Positions 926 to 49,352 of a stretch of DNA of 64,000 bases are shown one piece after another. The stretch comes from Deltaproteobacteria bacterium (GTDB lineage: Bacteria > Lernaellota > Lernaellaia > JACKCT01). Position numbers and translations under genes: made by a program. The notes beneath the pieces are model-generated. The model ran no database searches, had not been told where the DNA came from, and was given only the letters and a program-made list of their open reading frames with translations. The stretch is taken from contig JADLEX010000078.1 of NCBI GenBank assembly GCA_020845895.1, forward strand, positions 801-64,800. The letters run 5' to 3'. Positions within the stretch are counted from its first letter, which is position 1; each line of letters opens with the position of its first letter.

Positions 926-1008
926 CTTAGATGAATAGATTATAGCTTGGAAATTCTTAAGCGGTTAGCAAGAGGCCACCTGCGGCCACGTAATTCGAGG
1001 AGAAATCG

Positions 1009-25737: not shown

Positions 25738-26487
25738 TCAGGGCAGGCAGCTCACGTAGCTCGCGAACACGCCCGCCAGGTCGTCGGTCGTTTCGATCAG
25801 CGAGAATTCGGCGCCGAGTCCGGCGAAGCAGCTCACGGTATTCGCGACCTCGGAGAGCGACTCGCAAGCGGGGTGAGCCGATTCGCAGGCCGCCTCGTCG
25901 TCGCCGAACGCGCGGTCCATGGCGCAGTCGAGGTAGCCGGCGCAGTTCGCGCCCTCGGCCTCGGCGCGCGCCGCGAAGTCGGTTTCGGCCGCGATCACGC
26001 AGTCGAAGACCTGCTCGCCGCACGCGGCCATGCACGCGGCGGAATCGCACTCGAACGCGCAGTTCGCGCCGGCGTCGGCGCAAGCCACCGCGTCGGTGCG
26101 GATCTGGTCGAAGCTGACGAGATCGGCCATCGGCACGTCGCCGTGGATCGCCATCTCGATGTCCGAACCCCACTCATCGGCGCCGAAATCGACGTTCAGC
26201 CCGGCGAAGTCGTCGAGCAACCCGGTGCCGTCGAGCGCGTCCATCTTGCTCGCGCAGCCGCCGCATCCGTCGCAGCCGCACGCGCCGGTCGCGGGATCCT
26301 CGGAATAATCCGGGTCCTCGGTCGTGTCGTCGTCGGCCGACGTGTCATCATCGTCCATGTTTTCGAAGTCGTTCTCCTTGTTTTCGTCGTCGTCATCGTC
26401 GTCGTCGGAACAACCCCCGAGACCGATGGTGAGAGCGCCAAGAAGAGACAGGACCACCAACAGCGTCGACCACGGCCACAAGCGCAT
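25738..26487 (-). CDS. Acidic Cys-rich lipoprotein of unknown function
   Basis: Signal peptide with lipobox 'LGGC'. A poly-Asp tether (DDDDDDDENKEND...DDDD) follows, then a C-rich domain with about 20 Cys residues. Start refined to MRLWPW at 26487. Confidence 0.5.
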   Translation of the reverse strand: MRLWPWSTLLVVLSLLGALTIGLGGCSDDDDDDDENKENDFENMDDDDTSADDDTTEDPDYSEDPATGACGCDGCGGCASKMDALDGTGLLDDFAGLNVDFGADEWGSDIEMAIHGDVPMADLVSFDQIRTDAVACADAGANCAFECDSAACMAACGEQVFDCVIAAETDFAARAEAEGANCAGYLDCAMDRAFGDDEAACESAHPACESLSEVANTVSCFAGLGAEFSLIETTDDLAGVFASYVSCLP

Positions 26488-26722
26488 TCGGTTCCCCCTC
26501 GTCGATGACGCCGCGAACGGGTCGCGGCCGCAAATGTGCGGAAATTCCAGCAATTTCAAGAACTATACACAAACGCGTCGAGCGAGGGAATACGCGCGAA
26601 TGGGTCATCAAGCCGCGGACCGCTTCTTCCGATAGATGCTGAGAGGGGAACGGAATTCCCCGTCGCGGGTTATTGGGGAGCCGCGCGACGTACCGGCGGC
26701 GACGCCAGGGACGGTGCCGAAA

Positions 26723-32738: not shown

Positions 32739-32912
32739 GTCCCCTTACGAGTGTTTTCTCGTACCACTGGTTACAAATACAACACTGGGATTTTTCGATG
32801 CTCGCTCACGACGATGCTCCCGTCGCGTCCGCGCCCTGCAGGCGCCGGAAGCCGGGAGATCGACCGGATCGTGGCGGACAAATGGATGGACCGTCTTCCG
32901 TTGAGGGATCAA

Positions 32913-35208: not shown

Positions 35209-35493
35209 CCGGTCGTCGCGCTGCTGCTCGGTAACCGACGGACCTTCCTCCTCGGGGAGAGGGCCGGAGAGCGTCTTGAACCGTTCCAAGGTGCCTGCGC
35301 TCTCAAAAGGCGCATTTTCGTGAAATCCATTACGGGACATATTACGTAACCGTTAGTACAGTGTGTTCACGCAAAATGTAATCCCGTTGCGACTCGGCCG
35401 CGAAAAACGGGTCTGCCCCCGCGAATCGCAAGAGCGCCGACTGGTGGCGCCAGTGTGGGTTTCGGTCCTGGAATCGGATCTTTGGAGGGAAAC

Positions 35494-37887
35494 ATGCGCC
35501 TTGGGACGATCGTATTGGTGATTCTTGCGGCTCTCGGCTCGTTGCTCTCCTGCGTTGGGTCCGATGGTGAGACGCGTTCGGAGCCGGCTTCCAATACGTC
35601 GGAACTCGCGGGCGGACATTGGTCCTCCGAGGTGCAATCCCGCATCCGCGTCGAGGAATACCGGCTTCAACCGGATGATGGCGCGTTCGCGGGACGCAAT
35701 CCCGCCCAGCGTTTCTCAATCGAGATGGATGCTGACGGTGTTTCCCTCGCGTTGACCGTGCATGACACCGACCACGACTGGACCTGGTCCACCGTGGGAT
35801 TCGGTCGCGAGGGATCGGTCCTCGACGCGGCGTCGGCTTCTCCCGCCCCGGGGGACTGCGCGTTGCCGCCCGAATACGGCTTCGGCGACGTTTGCCTGTC
35901 GCAGATCGAGTACGACCGCGGCGAATTGGTGGAGTGGTACGCGAACCGGATGGGCGGGCTGGAGCAGGGCTTCGAGGTCTTCGGCGAGCCGACCGGGAAT
36001 GGACTTCTCGTGATCGAGGGTCGGGTTTCCACGACGCTCGCCGGTCGGGGGAACGCCGATCTCTCCGAGATCCTTTTCGCGGATGAAACAGGCGATGTGC
36101 TGCGTTACTCGGGTCTTTCCGTTCGGGACGCCAACGGCGTTCCGCTGGATAGCTGGATGGAGTGGGTCGAGCCCGACACGATCCGCCTGATCGTGGATGA
36201 CGCGGGCGCCCTGTACCCCATTACGGTGGACCCTGGCCTGTCCGACGCACCGGACTGGATCTTCGAAAGCAACCAGGAGGGCGCCTTTTTCGGCTTGTCC
36301 GTTTCCGGCGCGGGGGACGTGAACGACGACGGCTACGACGACGTGATCGTGGGAGCACATTGGTATACCAACGGACAAATTGGAGAGGGCCGCGCCTATG
36401 TCTTCTTGGGATCGGACTCGGGAGTACAGTCCTCGCCGGTCTGGACCTACGAGAGCGACCTGCCTGAAGCTAGATTTGGCAGTTCGGTTTCCGGCGCGGG
36501 GGATGTTAACAACGATGGCTACGACGACGTGATAGTTGGTGCTCATGGATTCAACAACGTCGATGAGTTCGAAGGACGGGCTTACGCTTTTTTGGGTTCT
36601 GGATCCGGCCCACAAAACTCTCCGGTGTGGATTGAAGAACCTCATGCGCAGACTTGGTTCGGTGTTAGTGTTTCTGGTGCGGGAGATGTCAACGGAGACG
36701 GAAATGACGATGTTATTGTCGGAGCATCTCATGCATCCAATGGACATAACCGAGAAGGCAGAGCCTACGTTTATTTAGGCACAGATTCCGGAATTCAATA
36801 TTCACCCGTATGGACAGCTGAAGGCAGTCAAACGAAAGGCTATTTTGGCAATCCTGTGTCAGGCGCGGGCGATGTGAATAACGACGGCTACGATGACGTG
36901 CTCGTGGGACAGCCTTACTTTTCCAATGGACAGAACTATGAGGGACGAGCCTACGTATACTTGGGAACCAGTTCTGGATTGCAGTCGTCTCCGATATGGA
37001 TATACGAAGGACAACAAGATAATGCCATCTTGGGAGGGTCGGTTTCAGATGCCGGTGACATTAATGGCGACGGATATGACGACGTGGTCATCGGAGCGCA
37101 AGTGTATGACAACGGCCAGAACAATGAGGGCCGTGCCTTCGTCTTCTTGGGATCGATCTCGGGAGGTCAGTCCTCTCCGGTCTGGACCCAGGAGAGTAAC
37201 CAGGTCCGTGCCTACTTCGGCGATTCCGTTTCCGGCGCTGGAGACGTGAACAACGACGGCTACGACGACGTGGTTATCGGAGCTTATGGTTATGCGAACG
37301 GCCAGAACCATGAAGGTCGTGCTTACGTCTTTTTGGGAACGGATTCGGGGTTGCAGTCGTCGCCGGTCTGGACCCATGAGAGCAACTGGGCCGAGTCCTA
37401 TTTCAGCAGTTCGCTTTCCGGCGCGGGAGACGTGAACAACGACGGCTACGACGACGTGATCGTCGGAGCGTACAAGTATGACAACGACCAGAACAACGAA
37501 GGCCGTGCCTGCGTGTTTCATGGGGAGATGCCGACCACCACCACTACCACCACCACCAGCTCCTCCACGACAACAACAACGACGACGACAACGACGACGA
37601 CGACGACAACGACAACAACAACGACCGCGACTTCATCTTCGACGACCTCCTCGACGGCATCCTCGTCGACCACCACAACCGTTACGACGACGACAGGTTC
37701 ATCGACGACTACGACGACAGCCGGTAGCGACGACGACACCGGCGACGACGATGCGGGCGATGACGACACGGGTGATGACGACCCCCCCGATGAAGACCCG
37801 AGAGGCGACCCCATTGACCCGATAGACAGGGAAAAAGGGGGGGATTCGGACGACGACGACGACCGTGGAAGCGGATGTAGCGTTTAG
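35494..37887 (+). CDS. FG-GAP repeat lipoprotein, tandem paralog of 32913..35162, with poly-Thr/Ser and Asp-rich tail ending 'RGSGCSV'
   Basis: Lipobox 'LLSCVG'. The first ~700 nt are ~90% identical to the preceding gene. There are multiple FG-GAP repeats. The tail 'TTTTTTTTSSSTTTTTTTTTTTTTTTTTTTTATSSS...DDDTGDDDAGDDDTGDDDPPDED' follows. Confidence 0.75.
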   Translation: MRLGTIVLVILAALGSLLSCVGSDGETRSEPASNTSELAGGHWSSEVQSRIRVEEYRLQPDDGAFAGRNPAQRFSIEMDADGVSLALTVHDTDHDWTWSTVGFGREGSVLDAASASPAPGDCALPPEYGFGDVCLSQIEYDRGELVEWYANRMGGLEQGFEVFGEPTGNGLLVIEGRVSTTLAGRGNADLSEILFADETGDVLRYSGLSVRDANGVPLDSWMEWVEPDTIRLIVDDAGALYPITVDPGLSDAPDWIFESNQEGAFFGLSVSGAGDVNDDGYDDVIVGAHWYTNGQIGEGRAYVFLGSDSGVQSSPVWTYESDLPEARFGSSVSGAGDVNNDGYDDVIVGAHGFNNVDEFEGRAYAFLGSGSGPQNSPVWIEEPHAQTWFGVSVSGAGDVNGDGNDDVIVGASHASNGHNREGRAYVYLGTDSGIQYSPVWTAEGSQTKGYFGNPVSGAGDVNNDGYDDVLVGQPYFSNGQNYEGRAYVYLGTSSGLQSSPIWIYEGQQDNAILGGSVSDAGDINGDGYDDVVIGAQVYDNGQNNEGRAFVFLGSISGGQSSPVWTQESNQVRAYFGDSVSGAGDVNNDGYDDVVIGAYGYANGQNHEGRAYVFLGTDSGLQSSPVWTHESNWAESYFSSSLSGAGDVNNDGYDDVIVGAYKYDNDQNNEGRACVFHGEMPTTTTTTTTSSSTTTTTTTTTTTTTTTTTTTTATSSSTTSSTASSSTTTTVTTTTGSSTTTTTAGSDDDTGDDDAGDDDTGDDDPPDEDPRGDPIDPIDREKGGDSDDDDDRGSGCSV

Positions 37888-37931: not shown

Positions 37932-40169
37932 ATGGTGAGCCGAATGATGCAGGGTTTGCGATCACTGATCTTCTTTGCTTTGTTGGGCTTTTACGGAGCG
38001 TTCGCTCTCGCGCAAGGCGGCAAAAGCGTCTTGGCATCGGAAGAATCGAAAGGAGGGGGTTTGGTCGCCGTGCTGCCCCACGGGCGTCCCGGCACTCCTT
38101 GTGCCGTGGATGGACAATGCAACGACGGCGTGGCATGCACGACGGACAATTGCGCCGGTGCAACCAACGCCACGGACACGGTGGGCGGAATGGTTTTCGA
38201 CTTCTCCGGCCAAGAGCTTCTTCGCGGCAACATCTATGAATGCTCTTCCAACGCCGTGCTCCAAGATGTCCAAATGTATCTGAGCCTATCGGCGGCAGCG
38301 GAAGTCATGGCCGTGGTCTACGAGGCCGATGCGGCGACCGGGCCGTTCACCCTGATCGATCAGGCAGCGGCAACCCTGCCGAACAGCGGCGTCAGTTGGT
38401 ACACGATTCCCGGCCTGGAAACCCACCTGACCGCAGGCAAGTATTACGCCATCGCGTTCACTTGGGACGTGCCGACGGTCGGCTATTACCGAAGTTCACT
38501 GCCCGACGCATCGGTGTATTTCGGCACAACGGCAGGCTACGTTGCGGATGAATATTTGCCGGATGATCCCGGCGATTACCATAGCGGGTATATCTATTAC
38601 CAGCGCGTGGTCGGCACGTTGGTCGACGGCCAGTGCGAAAACACGGCGGATGCGGGATATTGCAACGATGGCGTTGAATGCACCGACGACGTGTGCACCG
38701 ACGACAGCAATGTGGTCGGCAACTCGGGCTATGAATTTAGTGGGACAACACGCGCTCGCGGTAACCTCTACCTGGCCGACACGGCGGAACACCTGCTGGG
38801 TGTGCGAGCCTACTTGGGTATGACGTCGAACTCTCAAGTGACTGCGGTCGTTTATTCGGCGGACGTCATCGGGGGGCCCTACACGCTGTTGGATTCCCAT
38901 ACGACCACTCTCACAGCGGGGGGAACGAAGTGGTACAGCGTGTTCGGCTTGGATGTCACCTTTACTCCCGGCACCTACTATGCGATCGGGCTGACTTGGA
39001 ACACCCCCGACTTGCTTTACTCTTTCGGCGACTACTGCTTGACTTCCGTGCCCGTTTCCTTCGGTGACGCCGTTGGCAACTTTTCGCCGAACTTGTATCT
39101 ACCGTCTCCACTGAACTCCTCACTCGCGCCGAACGATTGCCACTACTTCCAGGAGGCCGTGACCGAAGAACTGACCACCGGATGCGCGCACGAGCTGAAC
39201 GACGTTTGTGACGACTCCGTCGGCTGCACCGAAGACACCTGTGACGATGTGGTCGAGGATACGTTGGGAGGGACAGCAATTGCAGAGAGCGGTTCTCCGA
39301 GAATGCGAGGAAATGTTTTTGAGGCCACGTCCAACGCGGTCCTGGAATCGATCTCGATGCAGCTGGATTTCTCGATGCACTTGGCGATCAACGACTCCCA
39401 TGCCGTGACGGCCGTGGTTTACGAGGCTGCGGCGATCACCGGACCCTATACGTTGATCGATTCGCAGACGGCGGTCTTGGCTGGGCCGGGAATAGAGGAT
39501 TATACGGTGGATGGGCTGGTCACTCCATTGACCGACGGGAAGTTTTACGCCATCGGGTTCACTTGGGATGGCCCATCATTGACATGGTATGCTGAAAATA
39601 CCGGGAGCCAAACGGTTTCTTTCGGCGTCTCTAATGCCCATGTCGAGTGGACGGGTTATCTTCCCGACGATCCGTCCGGCGGAATAGTTCAAGACAGCCT
39701 GCGTTACCAGATGAGTCTGGTGACCGCGGGCGACGGATGCTCCAACACTCCTGACGACAATCTCTGCGACGACGGCCTCTGGTGCAACGGTGCGGAGACC
39801 TGTGATACGGTGAACGACTGCGAAACGGGCGCCGATGCCTGCGCCGACAACGGTCTGTACTGCGATGGGACGGAAAGCTGTAACGAGACCGACGACATCT
39901 GCGAAGCTTCGGGCGATCCCTGCGATACCGGCACGGAAGAATGCAACGAAACCGACGACCAGTGTGATCCCTTGTCCGACGACGACGCGACTGACGACGA
40001 TGCGACCGACGACGATGCGACCGACGACGATGCCTCGGATGACGATGCGACCGACGACGATGCCTCGGATGACGACGCGACTGACGACGACACGACCACC
40101 GATGACGATGACGTTTCCGGCGGCAGCGGCGGTGACGATGACGACGGAGGCGGTTGCGGCTGCGGCTGA
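37932..40169 (+). CDS. Secreted protein with three ~150-aa internal repeats separated by Cys-rich modules, plus a C-terminal Cys-rich region, a (DDDA[T/S])n tail and a terminal 'GGGCGCG'
   Basis: Signal peptide 'LRSLIFFALLGFYGAFALAQG'. The repeat core is 'G-N-x-Y-E-x-SNAVL...VTAVVYEA...TGPYTLID...GKYYAIGFTWD'. Cys-rich modules 'CNDGVxCTxDxC' and 'DGLWCNGAETCD/DGLYCDGTESCN' resemble Myxococcus cysteine-rich repeats. Confidence 0.6.
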   Translation: MVSRMMQGLRSLIFFALLGFYGAFALAQGGKSVLASEESKGGGLVAVLPHGRPGTPCAVDGQCNDGVACTTDNCAGATNATDTVGGMVFDFSGQELLRGNIYECSSNAVLQDVQMYLSLSAAAEVMAVVYEADAATGPFTLIDQAAATLPNSGVSWYTIPGLETHLTAGKYYAIAFTWDVPTVGYYRSSLPDASVYFGTTAGYVADEYLPDDPGDYHSGYIYYQRVVGTLVDGQCENTADAGYCNDGVECTDDVCTDDSNVVGNSGYEFSGTTRARGNLYLADTAEHLLGVRAYLGMTSNSQVTAVVYSADVIGGPYTLLDSHTTTLTAGGTKWYSVFGLDVTFTPGTYYAIGLTWNTPDLLYSFGDYCLTSVPVSFGDAVGNFSPNLYLPSPLNSSLAPNDCHYFQEAVTEELTTGCAHELNDVCDDSVGCTEDTCDDVVEDTLGGTAIAESGSPRMRGNVFEATSNAVLESISMQLDFSMHLAINDSHAVTAVVYEAAAITGPYTLIDSQTAVLAGPGIEDYTVDGLVTPLTDGKFYAIGFTWDGPSLTWYAENTGSQTVSFGVSNAHVEWTGYLPDDPSGGIVQDSLRYQMSLVTAGDGCSNTPDDNLCDDGLWCNGAETCDTVNDCETGADACADNGLYCDGTESCNETDDICEASGDPCDTGTEECNETDDQCDPLSDDDATDDDATDDDATDDDASDDDATDDDASDDDATDDDTTTDDDDVSGGSGGDDDDGGGCGCG
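39978..40110 (+). repeat. Tandem 12-nt coding repeat (GACGACGATGCGACC-like) encoding (DDDA[T/S])x~10
   Basis: Near-perfect 12-nt periodicity seen directly in the sequence, at the 3' end of the 37932..40169 gene. Confidence 0.7.
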
Positions 40170-40190
40170 AACGCCGCGAAGTCCAATTTG

Positions 40191-40227
40191 ACAAACAAAA
40201 GCCCGGCGTCGCCGCCGGGCTTTTTTC
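40191..40227. terminator. Bidirectional rho-independent terminator (AAACAAAA-GCCCGGC-gtcgcc-GCCGGGC-TTTTTT) between convergent genes
   Basis: Hairpin flanked by an A-tract and a T-tract; lies between the stops at 40169 (+) and 40244 (-). Confidence 0.75.
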
Positions 40228-40243
40228 CGTCAATGCGTTCGCA

Positions 40244-41818
40244 TTACTGGTCCTTCGTCACGTATCCGTAGGCCGAAGCGAGCCAGTAGGCGACGAGATA
40301 GTCGACGCCCGGGTTGACGTCGCGGATGTTCTCGACCGCGCCGCACTCGATCGCCCACGGATTGCGCTGCCACAGAAAGTCCGTGGCGCACTGATAGAAC
40401 ACCGGGTAGGCATCGAGCGCCTGATAGTCGACGCCGCCGAAGACCTCTTCCAGGAACGGATACTGCACCTGCAGGTCGTGCAGGATCACGGAAATCGGAT
40501 CGAGCGGCGCGTCGGGCGGATCGACGGCATAGCGGTAGTTCGGTGCGGGGCGGAAGTCCTCCAGATCCTCGGTCATCTGCGCGAGCTGGTCGTCCCAGTA
40601 GTCGGACGTATCATCGAGCTGCGACTGGGCCATGTGGATCTGCGTGTAGAACGCGTTGTGCGACAGGTCGATGTGGTAGTGCACCTGCGTGGTGAAGACC
40701 TCGCGGATGAACTCGTTGATGTCGCAATCGGGGCGCGAGAGACGCAGCAGGTTGAACGCGTTCTGGTGCGCGAGGTTCAGCCCGTAGTGCTGCGCGTAGC
40801 GGTTCATGATCGAGATGTTCATGAGCCGGTAGAAGAGCTGATTTTCGGGCAGCGCCCACTTCTCGTAGATCTCGCGATACGTCGCGTCGCCCGTGATGTT
40901 CCAGCCGATGAGCGACCACGCCTGTTGCTGCGTGGGCAGCACGTTGGGCCCCGCGGTGGTGGGGATGTCGTCCACGTCGGTAATCCACCAGTCGGTGTCG
41001 ATGAGTTCGTCGAGTACCTCGGCCACGTCGGATTCGATCTGCGCGCGCATCGTCTCGTCGTCAACGAGATCGTACGCCAGCGACATGCCGAAGAACCAGC
41101 CGGTGTACTGGTCGCGGCTGGTGTTGCCGATCCAAAAATCGCCGTCGAATTCTCCCGAATCGACGCAGTGCCAGTTCTCGTCATTCACGCAGTTCGCCGC
41201 TACATCGCCGTAAGTGGGGTCTGACTGCGGGCCGACGTAGCGCGCGATGAATCCCGGCCGCCCCGTCACGTGCAGATGGCGCGAAAGCGACGACGCGGCC
41301 TTGATGGCGTTCGCCTTGGCCTGCGCGTCGCCGGTGACGTGGTAACGCAGCGCCTGCGACGCGAGATAGGTCCCCGTCCAGATGCACGAATCGCCGAGGT
41401 CAAAATACCACTCAGCCTCGTCGCGGTCGTCCGACGTAAACACGACGCCGACGGTCGATCCGTAGTTGGGCTGATGCCACGCCTCGTGCCACGAATCGTA
41501 TGCCTCGGCTTTTTCGCGCAGCGGCCCGCCCGTGGGCGACTCGTCGTAGGTCGAGCCGATCAGCACATCCTCGTCGCAAATCTCGGTGTCGTCGTCTCCA
41601 GTGTCGTCGTCCGCCGAATCGTCGTCGGGCAGCGGCGGCCATGTGTCGTCGTCGCCCGCGTCGTCGTCCGTCGCGTCATCATCCGTCGCGTCGTCGTCGG
41701 CCGTGTCGTCATCGACCGGAGCGCCACTGTCGTTGTCATCGTCGTCGCCCCCGCAGCCGGCGAGGAAGAGCATCGCGACAAGAATCAAAGTCCACCATGT
41801 CCCACGCATCATCTTCAC
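40244..41818 (-). CDS. Lipoprotein of unknown function with an N-terminal poly-Asp tether containing the 'DDDTWPPLPDDD' cassette
   Basis: Lipobox 'LAGCG' is followed immediately by 'GDDDDNDSGAPVDDDTADDDATDDDATDDDAGDDDTWPPLPDDDSADDDTGDDD'. The globular domain is ~430 aa and I recognise no family. Confidence 0.55.
   Translation of the reverse strand: MKMMRGTWWTLILVAMLFLAGCGGDDDDNDSGAPVDDDTADDDATDDDATDDDAGDDDTWPPLPDDDSADDDTGDDDTEICDEDVLIGSTYDESPTGGPLREKAEAYDSWHEAWHQPNYGSTVGVVFTSDDRDEAEWYFDLGDSCIWTGTYLASQALRYHVTGDAQAKANAIKAASSLSRHLHVTGRPGFIARYVGPQSDPTYGDVAANCVNDENWHCVDSGEFDGDFWIGNTSRDQYTGWFFGMSLAYDLVDDETMRAQIESDVAEVLDELIDTDWWITDVDDIPTTAGPNVLPTQQQAWSLIGWNITGDATYREIYEKWALPENQLFYRLMNISIMNRYAQHYGLNLAHQNAFNLLRLSRPDCDINEFIREVFTTQVHYHIDLSHNAFYTQIHMAQSQLDDTSDYWDDQLAQMTEDLEDFRPAPNYRYAVDPPDAPLDPISVILHDLQVQYPFLEEVFGGVDYQALDAYPVFYQCATDFLWQRNPWAIECGAVENIRDVNPGVDYLVAYWLASAYGYVTKDQ
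41620..41668. repeat. Dispersed ~49-bp near-identical coding cassette (encodes DDDAGDDDTWPPLPDDD), copy 1 of 3
   Basis: CGTCGTCGGGCA[GC/GA/AC]GGCGGCCA[T/C]GTGTCGTCGTCGCCCGCGTCGTCGTC recurs at ~41620, ~44044 and ~46566. Confidence 0.7.
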
Positions 41819-41821
41819 TCC

Positions 41822-44245
41822 TTAATCCTCAAACATCGCGCCCTGTCCCCAGGACGAGGGTTCGGGACCCATGACAAATTCGAGTGTGCCGCCGCCCGCG
41901 ATGTCGTCGTGCGTGAACCACGGTACGTCGAGCGCCTCGCCATTGAGTGCCGCCGATTGCACATAGATGTTTTCGAACGACGCGTTTTCGGCGGTGATGA
42001 CGAGCTCGTTTTCGCCGACGCCCACCTTGGCCCACGGGAACACCGGGCTGCCGATCTGGTAATATGGCGAGCACGGCGCGACGGGGTAGAAACCGAGCAT
42101 CGTGAACACGGCCCACGCCGAGAGCGTGCCGCCGTCGTCATTGCCGAACACTCCCGCCGGGGCATCGCGGTGGCGATTGTGCAGCACCCAGCGCACCCAC
42201 TTGGCCGTCAGGTCGGGCCGCCCCGCGTAGTTGAACAGATACGGCGTGTGAATGTCGGGCTCGTTGCCGTGGTAGTAGAACAGATCGGGCAGCACGCCGT
42301 AGGGCTTGGGCTGAGGCCGCGTGCCGGCGAAAAACGCTTCGAGCTCGGCGACGAATTCCTCCTCGCCGCCGAAGAGGTCGATCAGACCCGGAACGTCGTG
42401 GGGCACGAACCAGCGCCAGTGCCGCGCGTTGCCCTCGACGTATTCGTCGTACCAAAGCCACGCTTCGAGAAAGCCGGCGAGAAAGTCGCCCGATTCGTCG
42501 CGCGCGCGGAAAAACTTCGTGTCCTCATCCCACAGGTTCGCGTAATTGCCCGCGCGCTCGGCGAACATCTCGGCGTCCGCCGTTTCGCCCAGCGCGTCGG
42601 CGAGCACCGACAGGCAGTAGTCGTTGTACGCATACTCCTGCGTTTTTGAGACCGATCCGCTCGCCTCGTCGGCGGACAGCCACCCGCGCCCGGTCCAACT
42701 GTCCACATGGTCGCGGTTGCCGTAGGGCACCGGGCCGACGGCGTGCGCGCGCAGCCCCTCATACGCGGTGTCAATGTCGAAATCCGTCACGCCCTTGATG
42801 TACGCGTCGGCAATCACCGAGTCGGAGTGCGTGCCGATCATGCTGCCCGTGTCGCCAAGCCCCTGCGCCCACTTGGGAAACGCGCCGCCCTCCTCGTACA
42901 TCTTCACGAGCGAGATCGCCATGTCGCGCGCGTAATCGGGATGCAGCAGCACCACGAGCGGATGGAAGGTGCGGAACGTGTCCCACAACGACAGGTCCGT
43001 GTAGTACGTGAAGCCGTCGGCGTCGTGCGCCGCGCGGTCGAAGCCCACGTATTTGCCGTTTTCCTCGGTGTACGACGTGACGAGCTGGTCGAGGTGATAG
43101 AGCGCCGAGTAGAAGATCCGCTTGTCGTATTCGCGCCCGCCCGCCACCTGCACGCTCATCAGGCGCTCGTTCCACACCGCGCCCGACGCCGCGCGCACCG
43201 CGTCGAAATCCCAATCGGCGATTTGCGCATCGAGGTTCGCGCGCGCCTGCTCGACGCTCTGGATCGACAGGCCGACCTTGGCGAACACCGTGCCTTTTGC
43301 GGCCGCGAAGCCCACGTACGCGCCGACCGTCGGGCCGCTCGCGCTCGTTCCGCCCGGAGTGCGCACCCCCGCGTCGAAGGTGCCGAAATCCTCGAAGGGT
43401 TCCGAAAAACGCGCGACGAAGTGGATCGGCAATCCTCCCGAGCGTCCCGTGAAGCCGCCGCGCTGGTCGATCATGCCGGTGACCTCCCGCGCGGAATCGT
43501 CGACCGTCACCTCGGCGTCGAAAACCTGCCCGGGTACGTTGGCGTATCCCGCGTCGATGACGACATACGGCTCGGCGCCCGCCGCAAAGGTGTAGCGGTG
43601 AAAGCCCGCGTTCATGGTCGAGGTGAGTTCCACGTCCACGTCGTAGCGGTCGAGATGCACGCGGTAGTAGCCCGGCTCGCCCGATTCGTTGTCGTGCGAA
43701 AACGGTGAGCGGTAGCCCGCGTTCGTGACTTTTTCGTCCGAGATGCCGTCCACCGGCATGAGGTTGACGTTGCAAAGATCCGTCGCGCCGATGCCCGGCA
43801 GGTGCATGTGTGAGATGCCGCGGATCGTGTTGTCCGGGTAGTAATAGCCGCCCGCGTGCATCTTTTCGTGCGCGAATCCGCCGATCGACGTATCGGGTGT
43901 GAGCTTCACCATCGAACCCGGCAGGTTGGGCCCGGGAATCAGCGCGCCCATGCCGTAGCCGATGCCGCCCGTGCCGATGAAGACGTTGACGAAATCGACC
44001 GGGTTGTCGACGGGTTCGAGATCGTCGTCGTCATCTGCCGTGTCGTCGTCGGGCAGAGGCGGCCACGTGTCGTCGTCGCCCGCGTCGTCGTCGGTGTCGT
44101 CATCGGCGGAATCGTCATCCGACGAGTCGTCGTCGACCGGCGAAGGGCTGGAGTTGTTGTCGTCGTCGTCATCGCCGCAACCCGCGATAAGCAGGGCCGA
44201 TAGCGAGCACGCCAAAATCCAAACGGTGAATTTCGTCATCGTCAT
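41822..44245 (-). CDS. Glycoside hydrolase family 92 (alpha-mannosidase) lipoprotein with an N-terminal poly-Asp tether
   Basis: Lipobox 'LIAGCG' and tether '...DDDAGDDDTWPPLPDDDTADDDDD'. GH92 N-terminal motif 'FVNVFIGTGG...GPNLPGSMVKLTPDTS'. Conserved 'YHGNEPDIHTPYLFNYAGRPD'. Start at MTMTKF (44245). Confidence 0.7.
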   Translation of the reverse strand: MTMTKFTVWILACSLSALLIAGCGDDDDDNNSSPSPVDDDSSDDDSADDDTDDDAGDDDTWPPLPDDDTADDDDDLEPVDNPVDFVNVFIGTGGIGYGMGALIPGPNLPGSMVKLTPDTSIGGFAHEKMHAGGYYYPDNTIRGISHMHLPGIGATDLCNVNLMPVDGISDEKVTNAGYRSPFSHDNESGEPGYYRVHLDRYDVDVELTSTMNAGFHRYTFAAGAEPYVVIDAGYANVPGQVFDAEVTVDDSAREVTGMIDQRGGFTGRSGGLPIHFVARFSEPFEDFGTFDAGVRTPGGTSASGPTVGAYVGFAAAKGTVFAKVGLSIQSVEQARANLDAQIADWDFDAVRAASGAVWNERLMSVQVAGGREYDKRIFYSALYHLDQLVTSYTEENGKYVGFDRAAHDADGFTYYTDLSLWDTFRTFHPLVVLLHPDYARDMAISLVKMYEEGGAFPKWAQGLGDTGSMIGTHSDSVIADAYIKGVTDFDIDTAYEGLRAHAVGPVPYGNRDHVDSWTGRGWLSADEASGSVSKTQEYAYNDYCLSVLADALGETADAEMFAERAGNYANLWDEDTKFFRARDESGDFLAGFLEAWLWYDEYVEGNARHWRWFVPHDVPGLIDLFGGEEEFVAELEAFFAGTRPQPKPYGVLPDLFYYHGNEPDIHTPYLFNYAGRPDLTAKWVRWVLHNRHRDAPAGVFGNDDGGTLSAWAVFTMLGFYPVAPCSPYYQIGSPVFPWAKVGVGENELVITAENASFENIYVQSAALNGEALDVPWFTHDDIAGGGTLEFVMGPEPSSWGQGAMFED
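44044..44092. repeat. Dispersed ~49-bp coding cassette, copy 2 of 3
   Basis: See copy 1. Confidence 0.7.
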
Positions 44246-44249
44246 CCCG

Positions 44250-46778
44250 TCATGGGAACGCCACGGGCCCGAGCCCCTGCGCGTTGGTATTGCCATATTC
44301 GTCGCTCACGCCGCCCGGCGCAATCGAGACCGCGTGCGCCACGGCGTGTGCGCGCGTGAAAACGCCCTCGTAGTTGCCGCCGCCCACCGGTTCGAGCATG
44401 ACCGGCTCGTCGCCGAATCCCGACACGTGAATTGTCGCCGCAATCGACCCGCCTTCCGCGGAGGACCACGCCCCCGCCGAGGCGGTCATCGAACGCAGCC
44501 GGAACCCGCCGGGATTCGGCGGCATGAGCGCGCGGCACGAGACGCGAAACTCGTCGCCTCCCATCGCCGTGACCGCAAGATCGGTGACGGCGAGCCCGGT
44601 CGAAACGTCCACCGTGAACGTGCGTGAATAGATGGTGTACGGCGCCGTGCGATCGCCGTCCGAGCCGTCGCCCAGGGCTTTGAGTCGGTACATGCCCGAT
44701 GGCGTGCCCGCCGTGAGTTCCCAGTCGATGCGCCAGCGGTGGCGTCGCTGATAGGGAAACCCGCGCGTCTCATAGTCGGGTTCGGGCGCGTATTGCATCA
44801 GGGTGTCGATCGTCGCGTCGGTGACCGTTCGGCCGTCCGGACGCAGGAGCGGCGCGAAGCCCGCGCCGTCGTCGCGCTCCACGGTCACGCGCGGCGAGCC
44901 CAGAGCGGTGTAGCCGCCCGACCACTCGAAGGTGACCGTATCGAATCGCTCGTAGGTCGCGTGCGCCTGTGTGATGATCTCGCCCGCGAGCACGCCGGGT
45001 TCGATTTCGGCGGGCACATACGAATACGGCCACGGGTGACGCTGGCGGGCGGGCGCGCCGATTTCGTTGTTTTCCTTCTCCGGCGTCAGGAGCTGCGTGG
45101 CGAGGTCCACATTCTGCCCCGCGAGCCACTCGCCGAACTTCGGCCCCCAGAAGTTCATCGACGTTTCGTAACCGCCCTGCATCCAGTCCCAATCCATCAG
45201 CAAATACATCTGCGTGTCGTTGGCGTAGCCGAACGCGGCGATTTTGTCGGCGGGCCATACGAGTTCGGTTTCAACGCTCTCGCGCAGGTGCTTGGCGAGC
45301 CACGACGTGAGTTCGCCGGGCATCAACGGCATGATGTAATCGCCGAGACGCACGACGCCGATCTCCGCGGTGTCGAGCACCCACGACCACGGTTCGACCC
45401 AGTGAATGGGCACGTAACAGCCGTAGTAGCCGTCGAGCATCTTCGTTTCCTGATCGTTGCAGTCGACGATCGAACCTTCCGCCTCGAAAAACGACCGCTC
45501 CCCGCACCCCCACGCGCCGTGTTTGTATTCGTAGAATCGTCCGGTAATGAGGCCGTGGTAGCCGAACTCGCCGTCCTCATATCCGATCGCGTCGCGCGTG
45601 ATCGTCACGCGCTTCGACACCATCTCGAAGGTCCAGTCATCGGTCGGCGTGAGATCGTCGTAGGTGTCGCGGATCATGTCCGCCGCGCGCTGCCCCAAGT
45701 GCTCCAGATTCTGCCACTCGGGCAGATCGTAGCCCGAGCCGACCGGCGTCGAATCGCCACCCGCCGCTTGAATGAACAGCACCGGCACCGGCGTGTCGAA
45801 GGTCGATTCCATGCCGTGTTCCACCGCGCCGGGTGCGTCGGACGTCATCAGAGTGGAATGGGCCATGGTGCCGTGCATCCCCCAGCCGACCAACACCGCG
45901 AGCGGCGATCCGTCCTCGCGGTCGATGCGCGCGAGGAACATCCGGTCTTCCTTGTATTCCGGCGGGTTGTTCTGGCACCGGCGGTCGCGGAAGAGGCGAT
46001 TCGTCGGGTCGAACGGCGCTTGCAGCGTCACCGCCATTTTCGCGGGGACGAGATTCGCCATGCTGTCCGCGATGACGCGCGCGATCGACACGGCCATGCG
46101 GTCCTCGATGCGCTGGTCGTAGGTGTCCATGCCGGAAATGCCGAGCACCACCGGCAGTCCGTAGAAATGGTCGGGACCCGAGTGCGAGTGCGTGGACGAG
46201 AGCCAGAGTTTTTCGGAAAGGTTCAGTCCGGTGAGGCGGCAGACCTCGTCGAGCACGCGCGTGTACAGCGTGGCCGAGATGAGCGCGACGGGAATGCGCG
46301 CGATCACCAGCCGGTCCGCGCCGTTGTCGATGGTGACGGCCTTCACGTCCGGCCGGTCATGATACCCGGTCGACGCACCCATCATGATCGCGAAGGGATG
46401 CCGGGGCCCCGACCGCGCGCCATAGCCGCCCATGCTGATGCCGACCGGCGCATAGAGTTCGCCCACGGCGACGCCCGCGTGAAGCGACGCGAGGGTCTCG
46501 CCCCCGGGCGCTTCGTCGCACACGGGCGGCGCGGTGTCGTCATCGCCGGTGTCGTCGTCCTCGGCGTCGTCGTCGGGCAACGGCGGCCACGTGTCGTCGT
46601 CGCCCGCGTCGTCGTCGGCATCGTCGTCCGGCAAGACGCCGGTATCGTCGTCGGACGCATCGTCGTCGAGCACCGCGGAATCGTCGTCCGTCGCCGAATC
46701 CGCCGAAGGGTCGTCATCCCCGTTTCCGCACGCGACGCACGCGAAAGCCACGACCGCCAAAATGAAAAGCGATTTCAT
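44250..46778 (-). CDS. Neutral/alkaline ceramidase-like lipoprotein with an N-terminal poly-Asp tether
   Basis: Lipobox 'VACG' and tether '...DDDAGDDDTWPPLPDDDAEDDDTGDDD'. The N-terminal domain is ceramidase-like: 'GISMGGYGARSGP...' and 'LSSTHSHSGPDHFYG' (cf. the THTHSGP motif of neutral ceramidases). Start refined to MKSLFIL at 46778. The upstream part of the ORF-track entry is the back-translation of the tRNA gene. Confidence 0.55.
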   Translation of the reverse strand: MKSLFILAVVAFACVACGNGDDDPSADSATDDDSAVLDDDASDDDTGVLPDDDADDDAGDDDTWPPLPDDDAEDDDTGDDDTAPPVCDEAPGGETLASLHAGVAVGELYAPVGISMGGYGARSGPRHPFAIMMGASTGYHDRPDVKAVTIDNGADRLVIARIPVALISATLYTRVLDEVCRLTGLNLSEKLWLSSTHSHSGPDHFYGLPVVLGISGMDTYDQRIEDRMAVSIARVIADSMANLVPAKMAVTLQAPFDPTNRLFRDRRCQNNPPEYKEDRMFLARIDREDGSPLAVLVGWGMHGTMAHSTLMTSDAPGAVEHGMESTFDTPVPVLFIQAAGGDSTPVGSGYDLPEWQNLEHLGQRAADMIRDTYDDLTPTDDWTFEMVSKRVTITRDAIGYEDGEFGYHGLITGRFYEYKHGAWGCGERSFFEAEGSIVDCNDQETKMLDGYYGCYVPIHWVEPWSWVLDTAEIGVVRLGDYIMPLMPGELTSWLAKHLRESVETELVWPADKIAAFGYANDTQMYLLMDWDWMQGGYETSMNFWGPKFGEWLAGQNVDLATQLLTPEKENNEIGAPARQRHPWPYSYVPAEIEPGVLAGEIITQAHATYERFDTVTFEWSGGYTALGSPRVTVERDDGAGFAPLLRPDGRTVTDATIDTLMQYAPEPDYETRGFPYQRRHRWRIDWELTAGTPSGMYRLKALGDGSDGDRTAPYTIYSRTFTVDVSTGLAVTDLAVTAMGGDEFRVSCRALMPPNPGGFRLRSMTASAGAWSSAEGGSIAATIHVSGFGDEPVMLEPVGGGNYEGVFTRAHAVAHAVSIAPGGVSDEYGNTNAQGLGPVAFP
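46566..46614. repeat. Dispersed ~49-bp coding cassette, copy 3 of 3
   Basis: See copy 1. Confidence 0.7.
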
Positions 46779-46966
46779 GCGGGGGAATCTAGCACAAGCG
46801 AGCGCGGCGCTCACCCCCGTCCGCGCGGTCGAAGCCGAGAGAGGGGACCGCAACCGGGAACCAACAACCAACAACCTCCGCACGCGTTTGACGCGCGGGG
46901 CATGGGGCGCTAATAAGGCGGCTCGCGCCGGTCGCCCGGTTTGTCGGATGATTGTGCGACTCGTTT

Positions 46967-47040
46967 GGGGTTGTAGCTCAGCCGGATAGAGCACCAGGCT
47001 TCGAACCTGGGTGTCGGGGGTTCGAATCCCTCCAGCCCCG
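46967..47040 (+). tRNA. tRNA-Arg, anticodon TCG (UCG); no encoded CCA
   Basis: Cloverleaf by eye: acceptor GGGGTTG/CAGCCCC, D-arm GCTC..GAGC, anticodon stem CCAGG/CCTGG with loop CTTCGAA, T-arm GGGGG-TTCGAAT-CCCTC, discriminator G. Confidence 0.85.
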
Positions 47041-47044
47041 TTCC

Positions 47045-47782
47045 TCACCGCGCCTTACGCGCCGCCGACGAATCCGGGCGGTCTTTCGCCCCCTCCCAAG
47101 CCATCGCGGCGCTAAACAGGCGGCGGCATTCGGCGAGCACGGCGTCGATGGACGGCGGCGACGCCGCGTAAACGCTTTCCATCATCAGTTCATGGACTGA
47201 TCCCGCGAGCGCCAGAGCGCCGAGCGAAAAATCGCGCGGGAGCAGTTCGCCGCGTTCGGCGAGCATCGTGGCGTTCGTCTCGATCACCGATGCGAACTCG
47301 TGCATGTACGCCCGGCGACGCAACGTCATCTCGCGGCTCACCCCCGACGTCTCGACCAGCACGATGCGCGCGCGTCGCGGATCGTCGAGATAGGCGTGGA
47401 CGAACGCGGCGAGGCCGCTTTCCATCATGCGGACCGGATCGCCCGCGGCGTCGGCCAACGCCTCCATCACCGCCGCGCGCGTCTCGCCCATCACGCGCGC
47501 CAACACGGCTTCGAGCAGGGTGTCACGCGTGGGGAATGCCGCGTAGAAGTCCCGCGTGGCCACGCGAGCCCGCGCGCAGAGTATGCCGATGGTGGTTTTA
47601 CGGTATCCGCGTGTCGCGAACAGTTCGAACCCGGCGTCGATGAGGCGGTCACGCCGCTCGTCGACGCGCTCGGCGGCGGAGCGCCCGGCGTAGAGCCGTT
47701 CAGGCCGCTTCGCGGTCGGTTTCGCGGGCGGCTTCACGGGCGACTTCGCTTCCGCGGCGGCGCGCTTTTTCGGTGTCGTCAT
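47045..47782 (-). CDS. TetR/AcrR-family transcriptional regulator
   Basis: N-terminal HTH 'LFATRGYRKTTIGILCARARVATRDFYAAFPTRDTLL'. It overlaps the upstream hydrolase stop by 4 bp. Confidence 0.8.
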   Translation of the reverse strand: MTTPKKRAAAEAKSPVKPPAKPTAKRPERLYAGRSAAERVDERRDRLIDAGFELFATRGYRKTTIGILCARARVATRDFYAAFPTRDTLLEAVLARVMGETRAAVMEALADAAGDPVRMMESGLAAFVHAYLDDPRRARIVLVETSGVSREMTLRRRAYMHEFASVIETNATMLAERGELLPRDFSLGALALAGSVHELMMESVYAASPPSIDAVLAECRRLFSAAMAWEGAKDRPDSSAARKAR

Positions 47783-48807: not shown

Positions 48808-49065
48808 TTACGGCCTGTACGCCGCGCCTCGAGCGCGAACGTCGAATACGACCAAGGCGCGAGGTTCGTGTTGCCATGAGAATCGAATTCGCCAGGTCCC
48901 GACGCGCAGACGCCACTCGTCGTCGACGCCCTTCAACATCTTCACATCGCCGTGCCCGGATTCGGCAAACCGCGTCAACGCATCAAAAACACGTCGCCTC
49001 GTGGCGGCATCCAGACGATCCAGCGCCTTGACGGCAGGCTTCGTCCAAATGATTCCGACGTTCAT
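48808..49065 (-). CDS. Type II toxin, RelE/ParE family
   Basis: 85 aa; 'AVKALDRL...RRRVFDALTRF...WRLRVGTWRIRF...VVFDVRARG' fits the RelE/ParE fold pattern. It overlaps the upstream antitoxin-like gene by 4 bp. Confidence 0.7.
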   Translation of the reverse strand: MNVGIIWTKPAVKALDRLDAATRRRVFDALTRFAESGHGDVKMLKGVDDEWRLRVGTWRIRFSWQHEPRALVVFDVRARGAAYRP

Positions 49066-49352
49066 TTCGCGTACCGACCGATCACCTCTTCGTGCGAGAT
49101 CACCTCGCCGCGATCGCGCGCGCGCCTCGCGCGTTTCGCCGCGAGCGTCTCGTCCGCGGTTTCTTCTTCGTCATCCAAGGGAGCTGACGCAAGCCGGCGA
49201 TAAAACGGATCTTCGAGGATGGCGTTCAGCCGCGGCCGTATGACCGCGAAGAGTGCCGAGGGAACGAGAACAAACTCTTCGCGTCCCTTTGAGTCTCGGA
49301 TGGTTCGAAATGCCGGTTCGGACTCGGCGGCTCTCCTACGGCGCTGCGTCAT
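49062..49352 (-). CDS. Putative antitoxin partner of the RelE/ParE toxin
   Basis: 96 aa, located upstream of the toxin with a 4-bp overlap; contains 'FVLVP...' in the N-terminus and an acidic C-terminus. Confidence 0.5.
   Translation of the reverse strand: MTQRRRRAAESEPAFRTIRDSKGREEFVLVPSALFAVIRPRLNAILEDPFYRRLASAPLDDEEETADETLAAKRARRARDRGEVISHEEVIGRYAK

Follow-up and report, generated by a model that had tools for sequence, protein, structure and literature searches.

Three closely packed minus-strand genes, referred to here as C (first), B, and A (last), combine known kinds of enzymes with one undescribed family, that of A, and this gene set recurs in related genomes. The genes (40244..46778) lie within the window, a stretch of 64,000 nucleotides from a Lernaellota (FEN-1099) genome; the phylum has candidate status, and the bacterium, from sediment or a lake, is uncultured. 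We give about an even chance to the idea that they form one operon for three lipid-anchored extracytoplasmic enzymes, all acting on a single glycoconjugate with both mannose and an N-acyl (amide-linked lipid) moiety.

Organization and synteny of the gene cluster

The features of the locus are listed in Table 1. The GC3 values of the three genes (0.83–0.86) are like those of other real genes in the window. A gap of 4 nt separates the stop codon of C from the ATG of B, and the gap between B and A is at most 9 nt, with a Shine–Dalgarno sequence (AAGGAG) that overlaps the TAA stop codon of B. For A, the ATG at 41812, located 5 nt past AAGGAG, is a likelier start than the GTG. The upstream extension of the C reading frame runs through the plus-strand tRNA-Arg gene. 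We looked for a sigma-70 consensus in the interval upstream of C (46779..46966) and found none. The hairpin that directly follows A was missed by a simple pattern scan and found by RNA folding; it folds with −31.5 kcal/mol (z = −6.9), and 0 of 200 shuffled sequences fold as well. An A-tract on its opposite side suggests that this hairpin also serves the convergent gene at 37932..40169. The near-zero gaps, the single terminator, and the divergent tRNA gene point to co-transcription of C, B, and A.

Table 1. Coordinates of the gene trio and its flanking and internal elements within the window
Feature	Position	Strand	Remarks
tRNA-Arg(TCG)	46967..47040	+	Divergent, bounds the 5′ side; Rfam RF00005, 68.8 bits; ARAGORN
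Putative promoter region of the three-gene unit	46779..46966	-	Noncoding interval, presumed to hold the promoter
Gene C	44250..46778	-	842 aa from MKSLF; ORF extends to 47048
C signal peptide	46728..46778	-	MKSLFILAVVAFACVAC; noncanonical lipobox CVAC, Cys17
C poly-Asp linker, residues 18–82	46533..46727	-	65 aa, 48% Asp, K/R 0; includes DDDTWPPLPDDD
C body and stop codon	44250..46532	-	Zn amidase domain, Ig-like domain, extra C-terminal β-sandwich
Gene B	41822..44245	-	807 aa from internal ATG; ORF extends to 44296
B signal peptide	44177..44245	-	MTMTKFTVWILACSLSALLIAGC; lipobox IAGC, Cys23
B poly-Asp linker, residues 24–75	44021..44176	-	52 aa, 54% Asp, K/R 0; begins CGDDDDD
B body and stop codon	41822..44020	-	N-terminal domain 85–327, catalytic domain 333–794
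Gene A	40244..41818	-	524 aa
A signal peptide	41753..41818	-	Lipobox LAGC, Cys22 numbered from GTG
A poly-Asp linker, residues 23–78	41585..41752	-	56 aa, 52% Asp, K/R 0
A body and stop codon	40244..41584	-	(α/α)6-toroid domain, unannotated family
97-nt shared segment, copy in C	46532-46628
97-nt shared segment, copy in B	44008-44104
97-nt shared segment, copy in A	41584-41680
Intrinsic-terminator-like hairpin	40186..40232	-	Directly 3′ of the A stop codon; GCCCGGCG-GCGA-CGCCGGGC then UUUUGUUUG

The C-to-B order is found in five independent Lernaellota lineages, with C identities of 45–52%: the window together with L005 and L023, L002 (with L006 on the same contig), L004, L008, and L010. Gene A lies downstream in three of these five and adjoins C in L001, which makes four lineages altogether with A nearby. 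The syntenic copies of A are among its closest listed homologs (58%, versus 46–55% for most others listed). Unrelated insertions occur within the cluster: L005 has a YhcG nuclease gene there, and L010 a GT-C gene. At C identities of at least 40%, C is present without a GH92 gene in six of approximately 11 lineages (L001, L003, L007/L024, L009, L025, and L026), and relatives at 35% or lower, mostly Myxococcota, all have C alone. Because C occurs without GH92 in so many lineages, the C–B pairing is facultative. The functional link between the genes that the original prediction had proposed gains support from the tight spacing, the one terminator, and the synteny of C and B in five lineages.

Family assignment and catalytic residues

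Judged by its sequence, B is clearly a GH92 exo-α-mannosidase, as had been predicted. It matches Glyco_hydro_92 (3.4e-156) and Glyco_hydro_92N (2.5e-64) in Pfam and TIGR01180 (2.3e-172) in NCBIfam, and the nearest solved structure is BT3130 (6f8z; 3.9e-129), the catalytic residues of which are Glu535 and Asp637 (PMC5930347). Alignment of the catalytic motifs with BT3130 indicates that the putative general acid, E604 (YVEGNA), and general base, D704 (GNDD), of B are both conserved. B shares both GH92 domains and the catalytic acid/base pair with the Bacteroides thetaiotaomicron enzymes BT3130, BT3965, and BT3990, but it belongs to another phylum, is tethered as a lipoprotein by a poly-Asp linker, and lies outside any SusC/D polysaccharide-utilization locus. 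Linkage specificity is not readable from the sequence of B and is uncertain for BT3130 itself.

C, which has dozens of homologs, has the neutral-ceramidase fold but is a diverged representative of it, and the homology named in the original prediction holds. The protein matches Pfam Ceramidase_alk (PF04734) with 4.5e-12 (45.8 bits, cut-off 32.1). A single-sequence search reached 4wgk with an E-value of 1e-7, and the family profile matched 4wgk (1.7e-38) and 2zws (9.5e-36) in the PDB over the full length. With the AF2 model (pLDDT 91.6), Foldseek retrieved 4wgk (2.2e-39, TMt 0.72) and 2zxc (TMt 0.75). The predicted catalytic set consists of H197, H199, R266, H302, E489, Y525, and Y537 (842-aa numbering). 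A lack of Zn ligands and of a Ser nucleophile had been named beforehand as what would speak against a ceramidase-like enzyme. The equivalents of the Zn ligands in the human enzyme (H194, H303, E540, and Y579) are present and invariant in all 35 family members, as are those of human H196, R257, and Y591. At the position of human Ser354, C has Thr344, and just 16 of 35 relatives have Ser there; since Ser354 does no more than stabilize Arg257 in the solved human enzyme (PMC6952831), asking for a Ser nucleophile is out of date.

Compared with human ASAH2 (4WGK) and the Pseudomonas aeruginosa CDase (2ZWS/2ZXC), C has the same catalytic plus Ig-like architecture (PF04734/PF17048 family) and identical Zn ligands and His/Arg/Tyr/Tyr catalytic residues, but the identity in the structural alignment is just 15–17%, and the C-terminal Pfam domain of C falls below the cut-off. 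C also differs in having an additional C-terminal β-sandwich of approximately 170 aa, a Cys-rich insertion, Thr in place of the GDVSPN serine, and a lipobox with a poly-Asp linker as its anchor. According to a reference cited in PMC6952831, a mucin-like, O-glycosylated stalk attaches human ASAH2 to the membrane; C resembles this enzyme in having a long low-complexity stalk as tether. Characterization of the neutral-ceramidase family covers only a few enzymes, and the branch that contains C is remote.

The 524-residue protein A had been described as lacking a recognizable family, and we likewise found no significant sequence or profile match for it in Pfam, NCBIfam, or PDB sequences. It has hundreds of homologs; the family is multicopy, with other copies in unrelated contexts, and distant relatives carry fused H-type lectin or SLH domains. 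The confident AF2 model of A is an (α/α)6 toroid (pLDDT 94.3, pTM 0.94), for which Foldseek returned GH146, GH9, GH76, and AGE epimerases at the fold level only (E-values of at least 7e-4, TM < 0.5). The invariant polar residues (D143, S144, W147, R193, T233-S234-R235-D236, Y238, W241, H351, H387-N388, D418, D440, and Q466) lie for the most part at the N termini of helices H62, H156, H310, and H362 of this model. In (α/α)6 enzymes, the N-terminal face of the helices forms the catalytic pocket. A thus shares its fold class with GH146/GH127 β-L-arabinofuranosidases, GH9 endoglucanases, GH76 α-1,6-mannanases, and AGE epimerases/isomerases, but at approximately 10% identity (best Foldseek E-value 7e-4), and we could not map their catalytic residues onto A. 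A could be an isomerase or lyase instead of a hydrolase. Bacteroides yeast-mannan loci pair GH76 with GH92, which is a functional analogy to A and B.

The lipobox and poly-Asp tether

In each of the three proteins, a signal peptide ending in a lipobox with its Cys is followed by a linker of 52 to 65 residues that is approximately 50% Asp and then by an enzyme domain. The nearest homologs of C have canonical lipoboxes (LASC, VVSC, and FAAC) at the place of its noncanonical one. The sequence AGDDDTWPPLPDDD is present in all three linkers; the 97-nt segment that encodes it (family D2) is 78–86% identical among the three genes. The original prediction was right about the common tether but went too far in taking it as a mark that links the trio: the same combination of lipobox and poly-Asp is encoded elsewhere in the window (994..1509 and 25738..26559) and occurs in 71 of the 120 A-family homologs listed and in 12 of 47 C-family homologs. 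The tether is a lineage-wide trait and, therefore, does not by itself tie A, B, and C together.

The linkers are probably disordered. A preprint on outer-membrane lipoproteins of Escherichia coli reports that disordered linkers play a part in Lol sorting (bioRxiv 10.1101/2021.01.05.425367), and the lipoprotein export signal of Bacteroidota reads C-S-D-D-D-D or K-(D/E)2 (PMC5080379). The mature N termini of B (CGDDDDD) and A (CGGDDDD) are like this signal in having an acidic run after the Cys at +1 and a small residue at +2, but the three proteins differ in having a 50- to 65-residue tract of DDDx repeats and in belonging to another phylum. By analogy with the Bacteroidota SDDDD signal, the CGDDDD start suggests that the trio may be surface exposed.

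Possible substrates of the trio

Neither a transporter nor a SusC/D pair nor a sphingolipid gene adjoins the trio, and a Pfam scan of 29 window genes gave no sphingolipid genes. The original prediction held that a surface-located trio degrades mannose glycosphingolipids (fungal MIPC, plant GIPC, or Sphingomonas-type), with the GH92 enzyme removing mannose and C acting as a true ceramidase. Such a substrate is plausible in view of the complete catalytic set and fold of C, the fact that both its solved relatives are ceramidases, the C–GH92 synteny, and the export-signal-like mature start. Neighboring genes fit as well: a β-oxidation cluster divergently adjoins C in L003, and in L004 C comes after a gene of the fatty-acid desaturase family and a second ceramidase-like gene. 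Still, we know of no GH92 enzyme that releases mannose from inositol or ceramide head groups, no paper linking GH92 to neutral ceramidases was found in the literature searched, the Ser354 equivalent is not conserved, and the export-signal resemblance is drawn from a different phylum, so that we consider this specific reading unlikely.

The trio might instead remodel or recycle the cell's own mannosylated envelope (a glycolipid, a lipoglycan, or O-mannosylated proteins with Thr-/Asp-rich linkers) rather than serve foraging. A gene for a TMEM260-like protein O-mannosyltransferase directly follows the GH92 gene in L010 (between B and A) and L004, and this neighbor points equally to turnover of such envelope molecules; it is missing, however, in the window and in three of the five C–B lineages. 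The cluster in L008 has an unclassified membrane protein at its flank, genes for GT87, GT2, and LPG_synthase come after C in L003, and the window itself encodes a YfhO-type membrane glycosyltransferase and neighboring secreted proteins with long poly-Thr and poly-Asp tracts. In addition, the C subfamily is shared with Myxococcota, which are known sphingolipid producers. Set against this, the operon itself has no biosynthetic genes, and exo-hydrolases anchored through long linkers are seen more typically in nutrient acquisition; we consider envelope turnover improbable. It is quite improbable that the proteins share no substrate and are separate members of a large repertoire of secreted hydrolases packed by chance, with linkers made alike by local gene conversion and by a composition found throughout the lineage. 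In favor of this last reading, the tether format is lineage-wide, A has many paralogs in unrelated contexts, C is often alone, and the window encodes unrelated secreted hydrolases, among them a papain-like protease and FG-GAP proteins; against it, the C–B(–A) order is kept at 45–52% C identity despite the YhcG and GT-C insertions, and the stop of one gene is all but coupled to the start of the next.

We return to the reading of one operon directed at one mannose-containing N-acyl glycoconjugate. Against it count the facultative C–B pairing, the multiple copies of A in unrelated contexts, the remoteness of the C branch, the chance that A is no hydrolase, and the lack of an adjacent transporter, SusC/D pair, or sphingolipid gene. 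Gene structure, family or fold assignments, conservation of the catalytic residues, and synteny are shown here, whereas co-transcription, location in the cell, and a common substrate and its identity are inferred. B, as a Ca-dependent GH92 enzyme, would take off terminal α-mannose; A, as an (α/α)6 enzyme, would cleave or isomerize another sugar; and C, as a Zn amidase with a neutral-ceramidase active site, would break the fatty-acyl amide bond, while the strongly acidic linkers would hang each enzyme from the membrane. Lernaellota MAGs are described as abounding in peptidases and glycoside hydrolases (PMC9324843). The substrate would most likely be scavenged from outside the cell, which fits a lineage predicted to degrade polymers.

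Gene order and its conservation

The genes for A (a toroid-fold protein), B (a GH92 mannosidase), and C (an amidase of the neutral ceramidase fold) lie head to tail on the minus strand, just where the original prediction had placed three ORFs. Their third-position GC content (0.83–0.86) is like that of other genes in this window of 62–69% GC. Only 4 nt separate the stop codon of C from the ATG of B. The TAA stop of B lies inside the sequence TAAGGAG, with an ATG 5 nt beyond, so that A most likely starts at 41812. Directly 3′ of the A stop codon, a GC-rich hairpin (−31.5 kcal/mol, z = −6.9 by RNA folding) precedes a U-tract. This terminator hairpin was missed by the pattern scan for promoters and terminators, which gave nothing useful for the region, and was located by reading the sequence and then folding it. 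An A-tract on the far side of the hairpin suggests that the terminator also serves the convergent gene 37932..40169. The layout of A, B, and C is that of one transcription unit, from which we infer cotranscription, with the promoter predicted to lie in the interval upstream of C.

Longer forms of two of the genes were rejected: the 932-aa form of C because its ORF reads across a tRNA-Arg(TCG) gene, and the 824-aa form of B because its ORF overlaps the 3′ end of gene C. The minus-strand ORF that translates across the tRNA gene (GGIRTPD...) is a typical false ORF extension; ARAGORN calls this tRNA on both strands, and Rfam supports the plus strand only.

Coordinates of the features discussed in the text
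Feature	Locus	Position	Strand	Remark
Gene A	Window	40244..41818	-	524 aa
Gene B	Window	41822..44245	-	807 aa, counted from an internal ATG
Gene C	Window	44250..46778	-	842 aa, counted from MKSLF
Shared linker segment of A	Window	41584-41680		97 nt
Shared linker segment of B	Window	44008-44104		97 nt
Shared linker segment of C	Window	46532-46628		97 nt
Predicted promoter interval	Window	46779..46966		
tRNA-Arg(TCG)	Window	46967..47040		
False ORF extension	Window	44250..47048	-	
Small overlapping ORFs	Window	48808..49352	-	85 and 96 aa
B12-binding radical SAM gene	Window	1773..3218	+	
B12-binding radical SAM gene	Window	5022..6773	-	
B12-binding radical SAM gene	Window	6467..8245	-	
Secreted protein	Window	26636..28735	+	C-terminal tract
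Secreted protein	Window	32751..35162	+	C-terminal tract
Secreted protein	Window	35455..37887	+	C-terminal tract
Secreted protein	Window	37932..40169	+	C-terminal tract
Desaturase-family gene and 615-aa protein	L004	4653..7581		MAG GCA_019912885.1
TMEM260-like gene	L004	13491..13771		
TMEM260-like gene	L010	14824..16749		
Split A orthologue	L010	17158..18443		

The window yielded 100% matches at NCBI (IT350_10595 and IT350_10605, labeled "Deltaproteobacteria bacterium"), and closely related sequences are present in Ca. Lernaella stagnicola, Ca. Alcyoniella australis, and MAGs that bear the names FEN-1099 or FEN-2, which places the organism in Ca. Lernaellota. MAG-based descriptions present this group as saccharolytic and proteolytic (PMC9324843). 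The neighbors of the trio are a TetR regulator, an alpha/beta hydrolase, FG-GAP proteins, a repeat protein, and malic enzyme; no TonB-dependent transporter plus SusD pair, as in SusC/SusD-type polysaccharide utilization loci, is adjacent. Scanning 29 window genes with Pfam revealed ATP synthase, isocitrate dehydrogenase, acetyl-CoA synthetase, radical SAM enzymes, malic enzyme, and an OPT transporter among them, and no sphingolipid biosynthesis or lipid genes. Two of the three radical SAM ORFs, as called, overlap by ~300 nt. On visual inspection, the two small overlapping ORFs resemble a RelE/ParE-type toxin and its antitoxin.

To assess synteny, we gathered 36 genomic and metagenomic loci that contain a relative of C or A and searched each for all three proteins, using for C an alignment of 14 closer sequences. 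C is directly followed by an orthologous GH92 gene (61–95% identity to B) in five independent lineages. The order C-B-A is found in the window and in L005, where an inserted YhcG-type nuclease gene separates B from A, and the short contig L023 has C-B (C identity 83–92% in L023 and L005). C-B-A recurs in L008 (HK-STAS-FEN-2; C identity 47%) and in L010 (FR-FEN-1099-1; 50%); in the latter, B and A flank a TMEM260-like GT-C gene. The arrangement is C-B only in L002, on the same contig as L006 (52%), and C-B followed by a TMEM260-like gene in L004 (45%). L001 has A immediately upstream of C and no GH92 gene. C stands alone in L003, L007/L024, L009 (a paralogue from the same MAG as L005), L025, and L026, as do all its relatives at ≤35% identity. 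The copies of A in these clusters are among its closest homologues; other paralogues occur in unrelated or generic glycan-degrading contexts. That the order is kept down to ~45–50% protein identity, and despite insertions, argues that C and B are functionally, though facultatively, linked and that A often joins them as a third partner. Recent insertion of the GH92 gene into an older A–C pair was considered and rejected because C–B is the more widely conserved pair.

Some of these loci show further features. The TMEM260-like genes of L010 and L004, of the protein O-mannosyltransferase family, encode membrane proteins and lie directly downstream of the GH92 gene. In L004, a fatty-acid desaturase-family gene and a 615-aa protein precede the C–GH92 pair; the latter has a faint Ceramidase_alk match (E 0.003) and may be a tandem, more degenerate paralogue of C. 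The A orthologue of L010 is broken across two reading frames (tblastn pieces 98–372 and 369–523), which reflects either a frameshift, making it a possible pseudogene, or an assembly error.

Family assignment of the three proteins

The GH92 identity of B, as originally predicted, is borne out by both Pfam domains, which exceed the curated cut-offs (Glyco_hydro_92, PF07971, 3.4e-156, 521 bits; N-terminal domain, PF17678, 2.5e-64, 218 bits), and by TIGR01180 (575 bits, cut-off 250). The nearest solved structure is BT3130 (6f8z; 3.9e-129), with Glu535 as the general acid and Asp637 as the general base (PMC5930347). With the offset between chain and native numbering inferred, E604 of B (YVEGNA) aligns with FTEGNA of 6f8z at Glu535, and D704 (GNDD) aligns with GNDD at Asp637. 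B is convincing as an ordinary GH92 enzyme, with the catalytic Glu and Asp present. Its linkage specificity is not readable from sequence; that of BT3130 is itself uncertain (PMC5930347).

C exceeds the cut-off for the neutral ceramidase catalytic domain (PF04734, 4.5e-12, 45.8 bits, cut-off 32.1), and its C-terminal Ig-like domain scores below threshold (PF17048, 16.8 bits, cut-off 30.5). We counted the latter domain as present because the profile reaches the end of the human (4wgk) and Pseudomonas aeruginosa (2zws) ceramidase chains and the Foldseek alignment spans 690–730 columns. As a single sequence, C is weakly similar to ceramidases (4wgk at 1.1e-7); a 35-member profile matches the human neutral ceramidase over its full length at 1.7e-38 and the P. 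aeruginosa enzyme at 9.5e-36. In a Foldseek search of the PDB with the AlphaFold model of C (pLDDT 91.6), four human and P. aeruginosa ceramidase chains came out far ahead (E 2e-39 to 1e-37; TM 0.72–0.75 on target length), the remaining matches being Ig-like folds on the extra C-terminal domain. Homology of C to ceramidases was claimed correctly.

The original prediction had named a lack of the catalytic Zn ligands and Ser nucleophile in C as grounds for refuting it. Airola et al. 2015 reportedly identified H194, H303, E540, and Y579 as the Zn ligands of human neutral ceramidase. H197, H302, E489, and Y525 of C align to these positions and are invariant in 35/35 relatives. The human catalytic residues H196, R257, Y579, and Y591 (roles per PMC6952831) align to H199, R266, Y525, and Y537 of C, which are equally invariant (35/35). 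The GDVSPN motif reads GGDSTP in C, with Thr344 at the position of Ser354; this position is Ser in 16 of the 35 relatives, and conservation within the motif is confined to its Asp and Pro. Ser354 of the human enzyme is structural and no nucleophile (PMC6952831), which renders the Ser requirement obsolete; at the metal site, the refuting condition does not apply. C is probably an active Zn amidase of a remote, uncharacterized neutral ceramidase branch common to Lernaellota and Myxococcota, for which ceramide is no more than a reasonable guess as substrate. Within a known family, it forms a new and remote subfamily.

Searches of Pfam, NCBIfam, and PDB sequences with A, alone and as a 50-sequence profile, gave no significant match, so the third lipoprotein, originally described as lacking a recognizable family, keeps that status at the sequence level. 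The few matches that did arise, such as cytochrome bc1 subunit 6 and FAM176, were discarded as low-complexity poly-Asp artifacts. The other 49 members of the alignment have no Pfam match, and the family profile finds none in the PDB outside the poly-Asp region. A word-indexed search returned 338 relatives, all annotated "hypothetical." Against 1.84 billion cluster representatives, the profile gave 2146 matches at E ≤1e-3 and 236 at E ≤1e-30; since it kept the poly-Asp N termini of the homologues, part of the 1155 matches between 1e-10 and 1e-30 may be compositional. The best 150 of the profile matches align to the enzyme domain of A. Ten remote relatives were scanned, and their A-type domain had no Pfam match; among them, one carries an H-type lectin domain, one SLH domains, and one a metallophosphoesterase domain.

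The toroid emerged at the fold level. The AlphaFold model of A, built from the 50-sequence alignment, is all-helical (pLDDT 94.3, pTM 0.94) and matches only (α/α)6 toroids in the PDB by Foldseek. The matches are GH146 β-L-arabinofuranosidase, GH9 cellulases, GH76 α-mannanases, and N-acylglucosamine or cellobiose 2-epimerases (all at E of at least 7e-4, TM <0.5, and ~10% identity), with no sequence or profile membership in GH146/127, GH9, or GH76. These toroid-only matches make the fold class clear, yet place A in no solved family. The invariant polar residues (D143/S144/W147, T233-S234-R235-D236/Y238/W241, H351, H387/N388, D440, and Q466) mostly sit at N-terminal helix ends, as would fit residues that line a single pocket at one mouth of the barrel. 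A is most likely a glycosidase acting outside the cytoplasm, a lyase or isomerase being less likely. It represents an unannotated family with a known fold.

Lipoprotein tethers and envelope anchoring

A, B, and C each begin with a short basic, hydrophobic signal peptide, followed by a Cys. Using [LVI][ASTVI][GAS]C at the end of the signal peptide to define bacterial lipoproteins (Lgt/LspA substrates), A (LAGC) and B (IAGC) have canonical lipoboxes; C has the noncanonical CVAC, in place of which its homologues have LASC or VVSC. The linkers that follow comprise 56, 52, and 65 residues in A, B, and C, with 52%, 54%, and 48% Asp, respectively, and no Lys or Arg. All three contain AGDDDTWPPLPDDD, and the 97-nt segment encoding it is 78–86% identical among the genes. 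The C and B orthologues of L010 likewise have linkers that resemble one another (GCGCGDDDD...AEADDD) and not those of the window. Linker sequences thus seem to evolve in concert inside one genome.

The tether that the original prediction saw on these enzymes is present on all three, but proteins outside the trio have this format too. Lipobox and poly-Asp also occur in two further window genes, in 71/120 A-family homologues among the matches listed, and in Lernaellota-type members of the C family, remoter C relatives being plain lipoproteins. Surface-lipoprotein export signals of Bacteroidota have a small or polar residue at +2 and then at least two acidic residues at +3 to +5, a pattern also found here; SDDDD is that of Bacteroides fragilis (PMC5080379). 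The mature starts CGDDDDD (B), CGGDDDD (A), and CGNGDDD (C) resemble SDDDD, a resemblance only, as the host is not a member of the Bacteroidota. By this analogy, A, B, and C may be exposed on the cell surface. Precedents exist for disordered linkers in lipoproteins and for acidic export signals, and poly-Asp stretches of 50–65 residues are an extreme variant.

Four plus-strand secreted proteins of the window (a papain-like protease with a PKD domain, two FG-GAP proteins, and a three-repeat protein with no Pfam match) carry a C-terminal poly-Thr or poly-Asp tract. They end in the Cys motifs ...QQQVACGC, ...DDDDDGGCCGC, ...DDDDDRGSGCSV, and ...GGDDDDGGGCGCG, with no transmembrane helix after the motif. 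Judged by sequence, tract plus Cys looks like an undescribed signal for anchoring or sorting, a mirror image of the N-terminal format of lipobox plus poly-Asp.

Candidate substrates and significance

The best-supported reading, to which we give about an even chance, is that A, B, and C are cotranscribed, lipid-anchored enzymes that would work outside the cytoplasm on one mannose-bearing, N-acylated glycoconjugate. Such a target would combine α-mannose, at least one further sugar linkage, and an amide-linked acyl chain. Degradation of mannosylated glycosphingolipids, the originally proposed function, fits the fold of C, and there are hints of lipid-metabolism neighbors in L003 and L004; direct support is absent, and we regard this substrate as doubtful. 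About equally likely is that the cell turns over mannosylated envelope molecules of its own, consistent with the TMEM260-like O-mannosyltransferase genes after GH92 in two lineages, the glycosyltransferases after C in L003, and the long poly-Thr and poly-Asp tracts of neighboring secreted proteins in the window. A more far-reaching proposal, improbable in its entirety, is that A founds a new glycoside hydrolase family, that the three genes form a lineage-conserved "glycolipid utilization" module acting at the Lernaellota cell surface to strip an N-acylated glycolipid capped with mannose (a glycosphingolipid or its bacterial analogue), and that the poly-Asp stalk is both surface-export signal and spacer. 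Least likely, and very improbable, is that three unrelated hydrolases came together by pure coincidence.

GH92 enzymes are already known, and the trio as a whole is of value mainly as a well-defined target for biochemistry. A defines a sizeable unannotated enzyme family with a confident model and a clear set of candidate active-site residues and is, as such, ready for biochemical study. The literature searched contains no mention of a pairing of a ceramidase-fold amidase with GH92. Should the three enzymes share one substrate, theirs would be the first bacterial cluster described to couple a neutral ceramidase-type amidase to glycosidases, and it would provide a handle on glycolipid breakdown by environmental bacteria, a segment of the carbon cycle that is poorly charted. 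The poly-Asp lipoprotein stalks and the nearby C-terminal poly-Asp/Cys motifs point to unstudied rules of envelope anchoring in Lernaellota.
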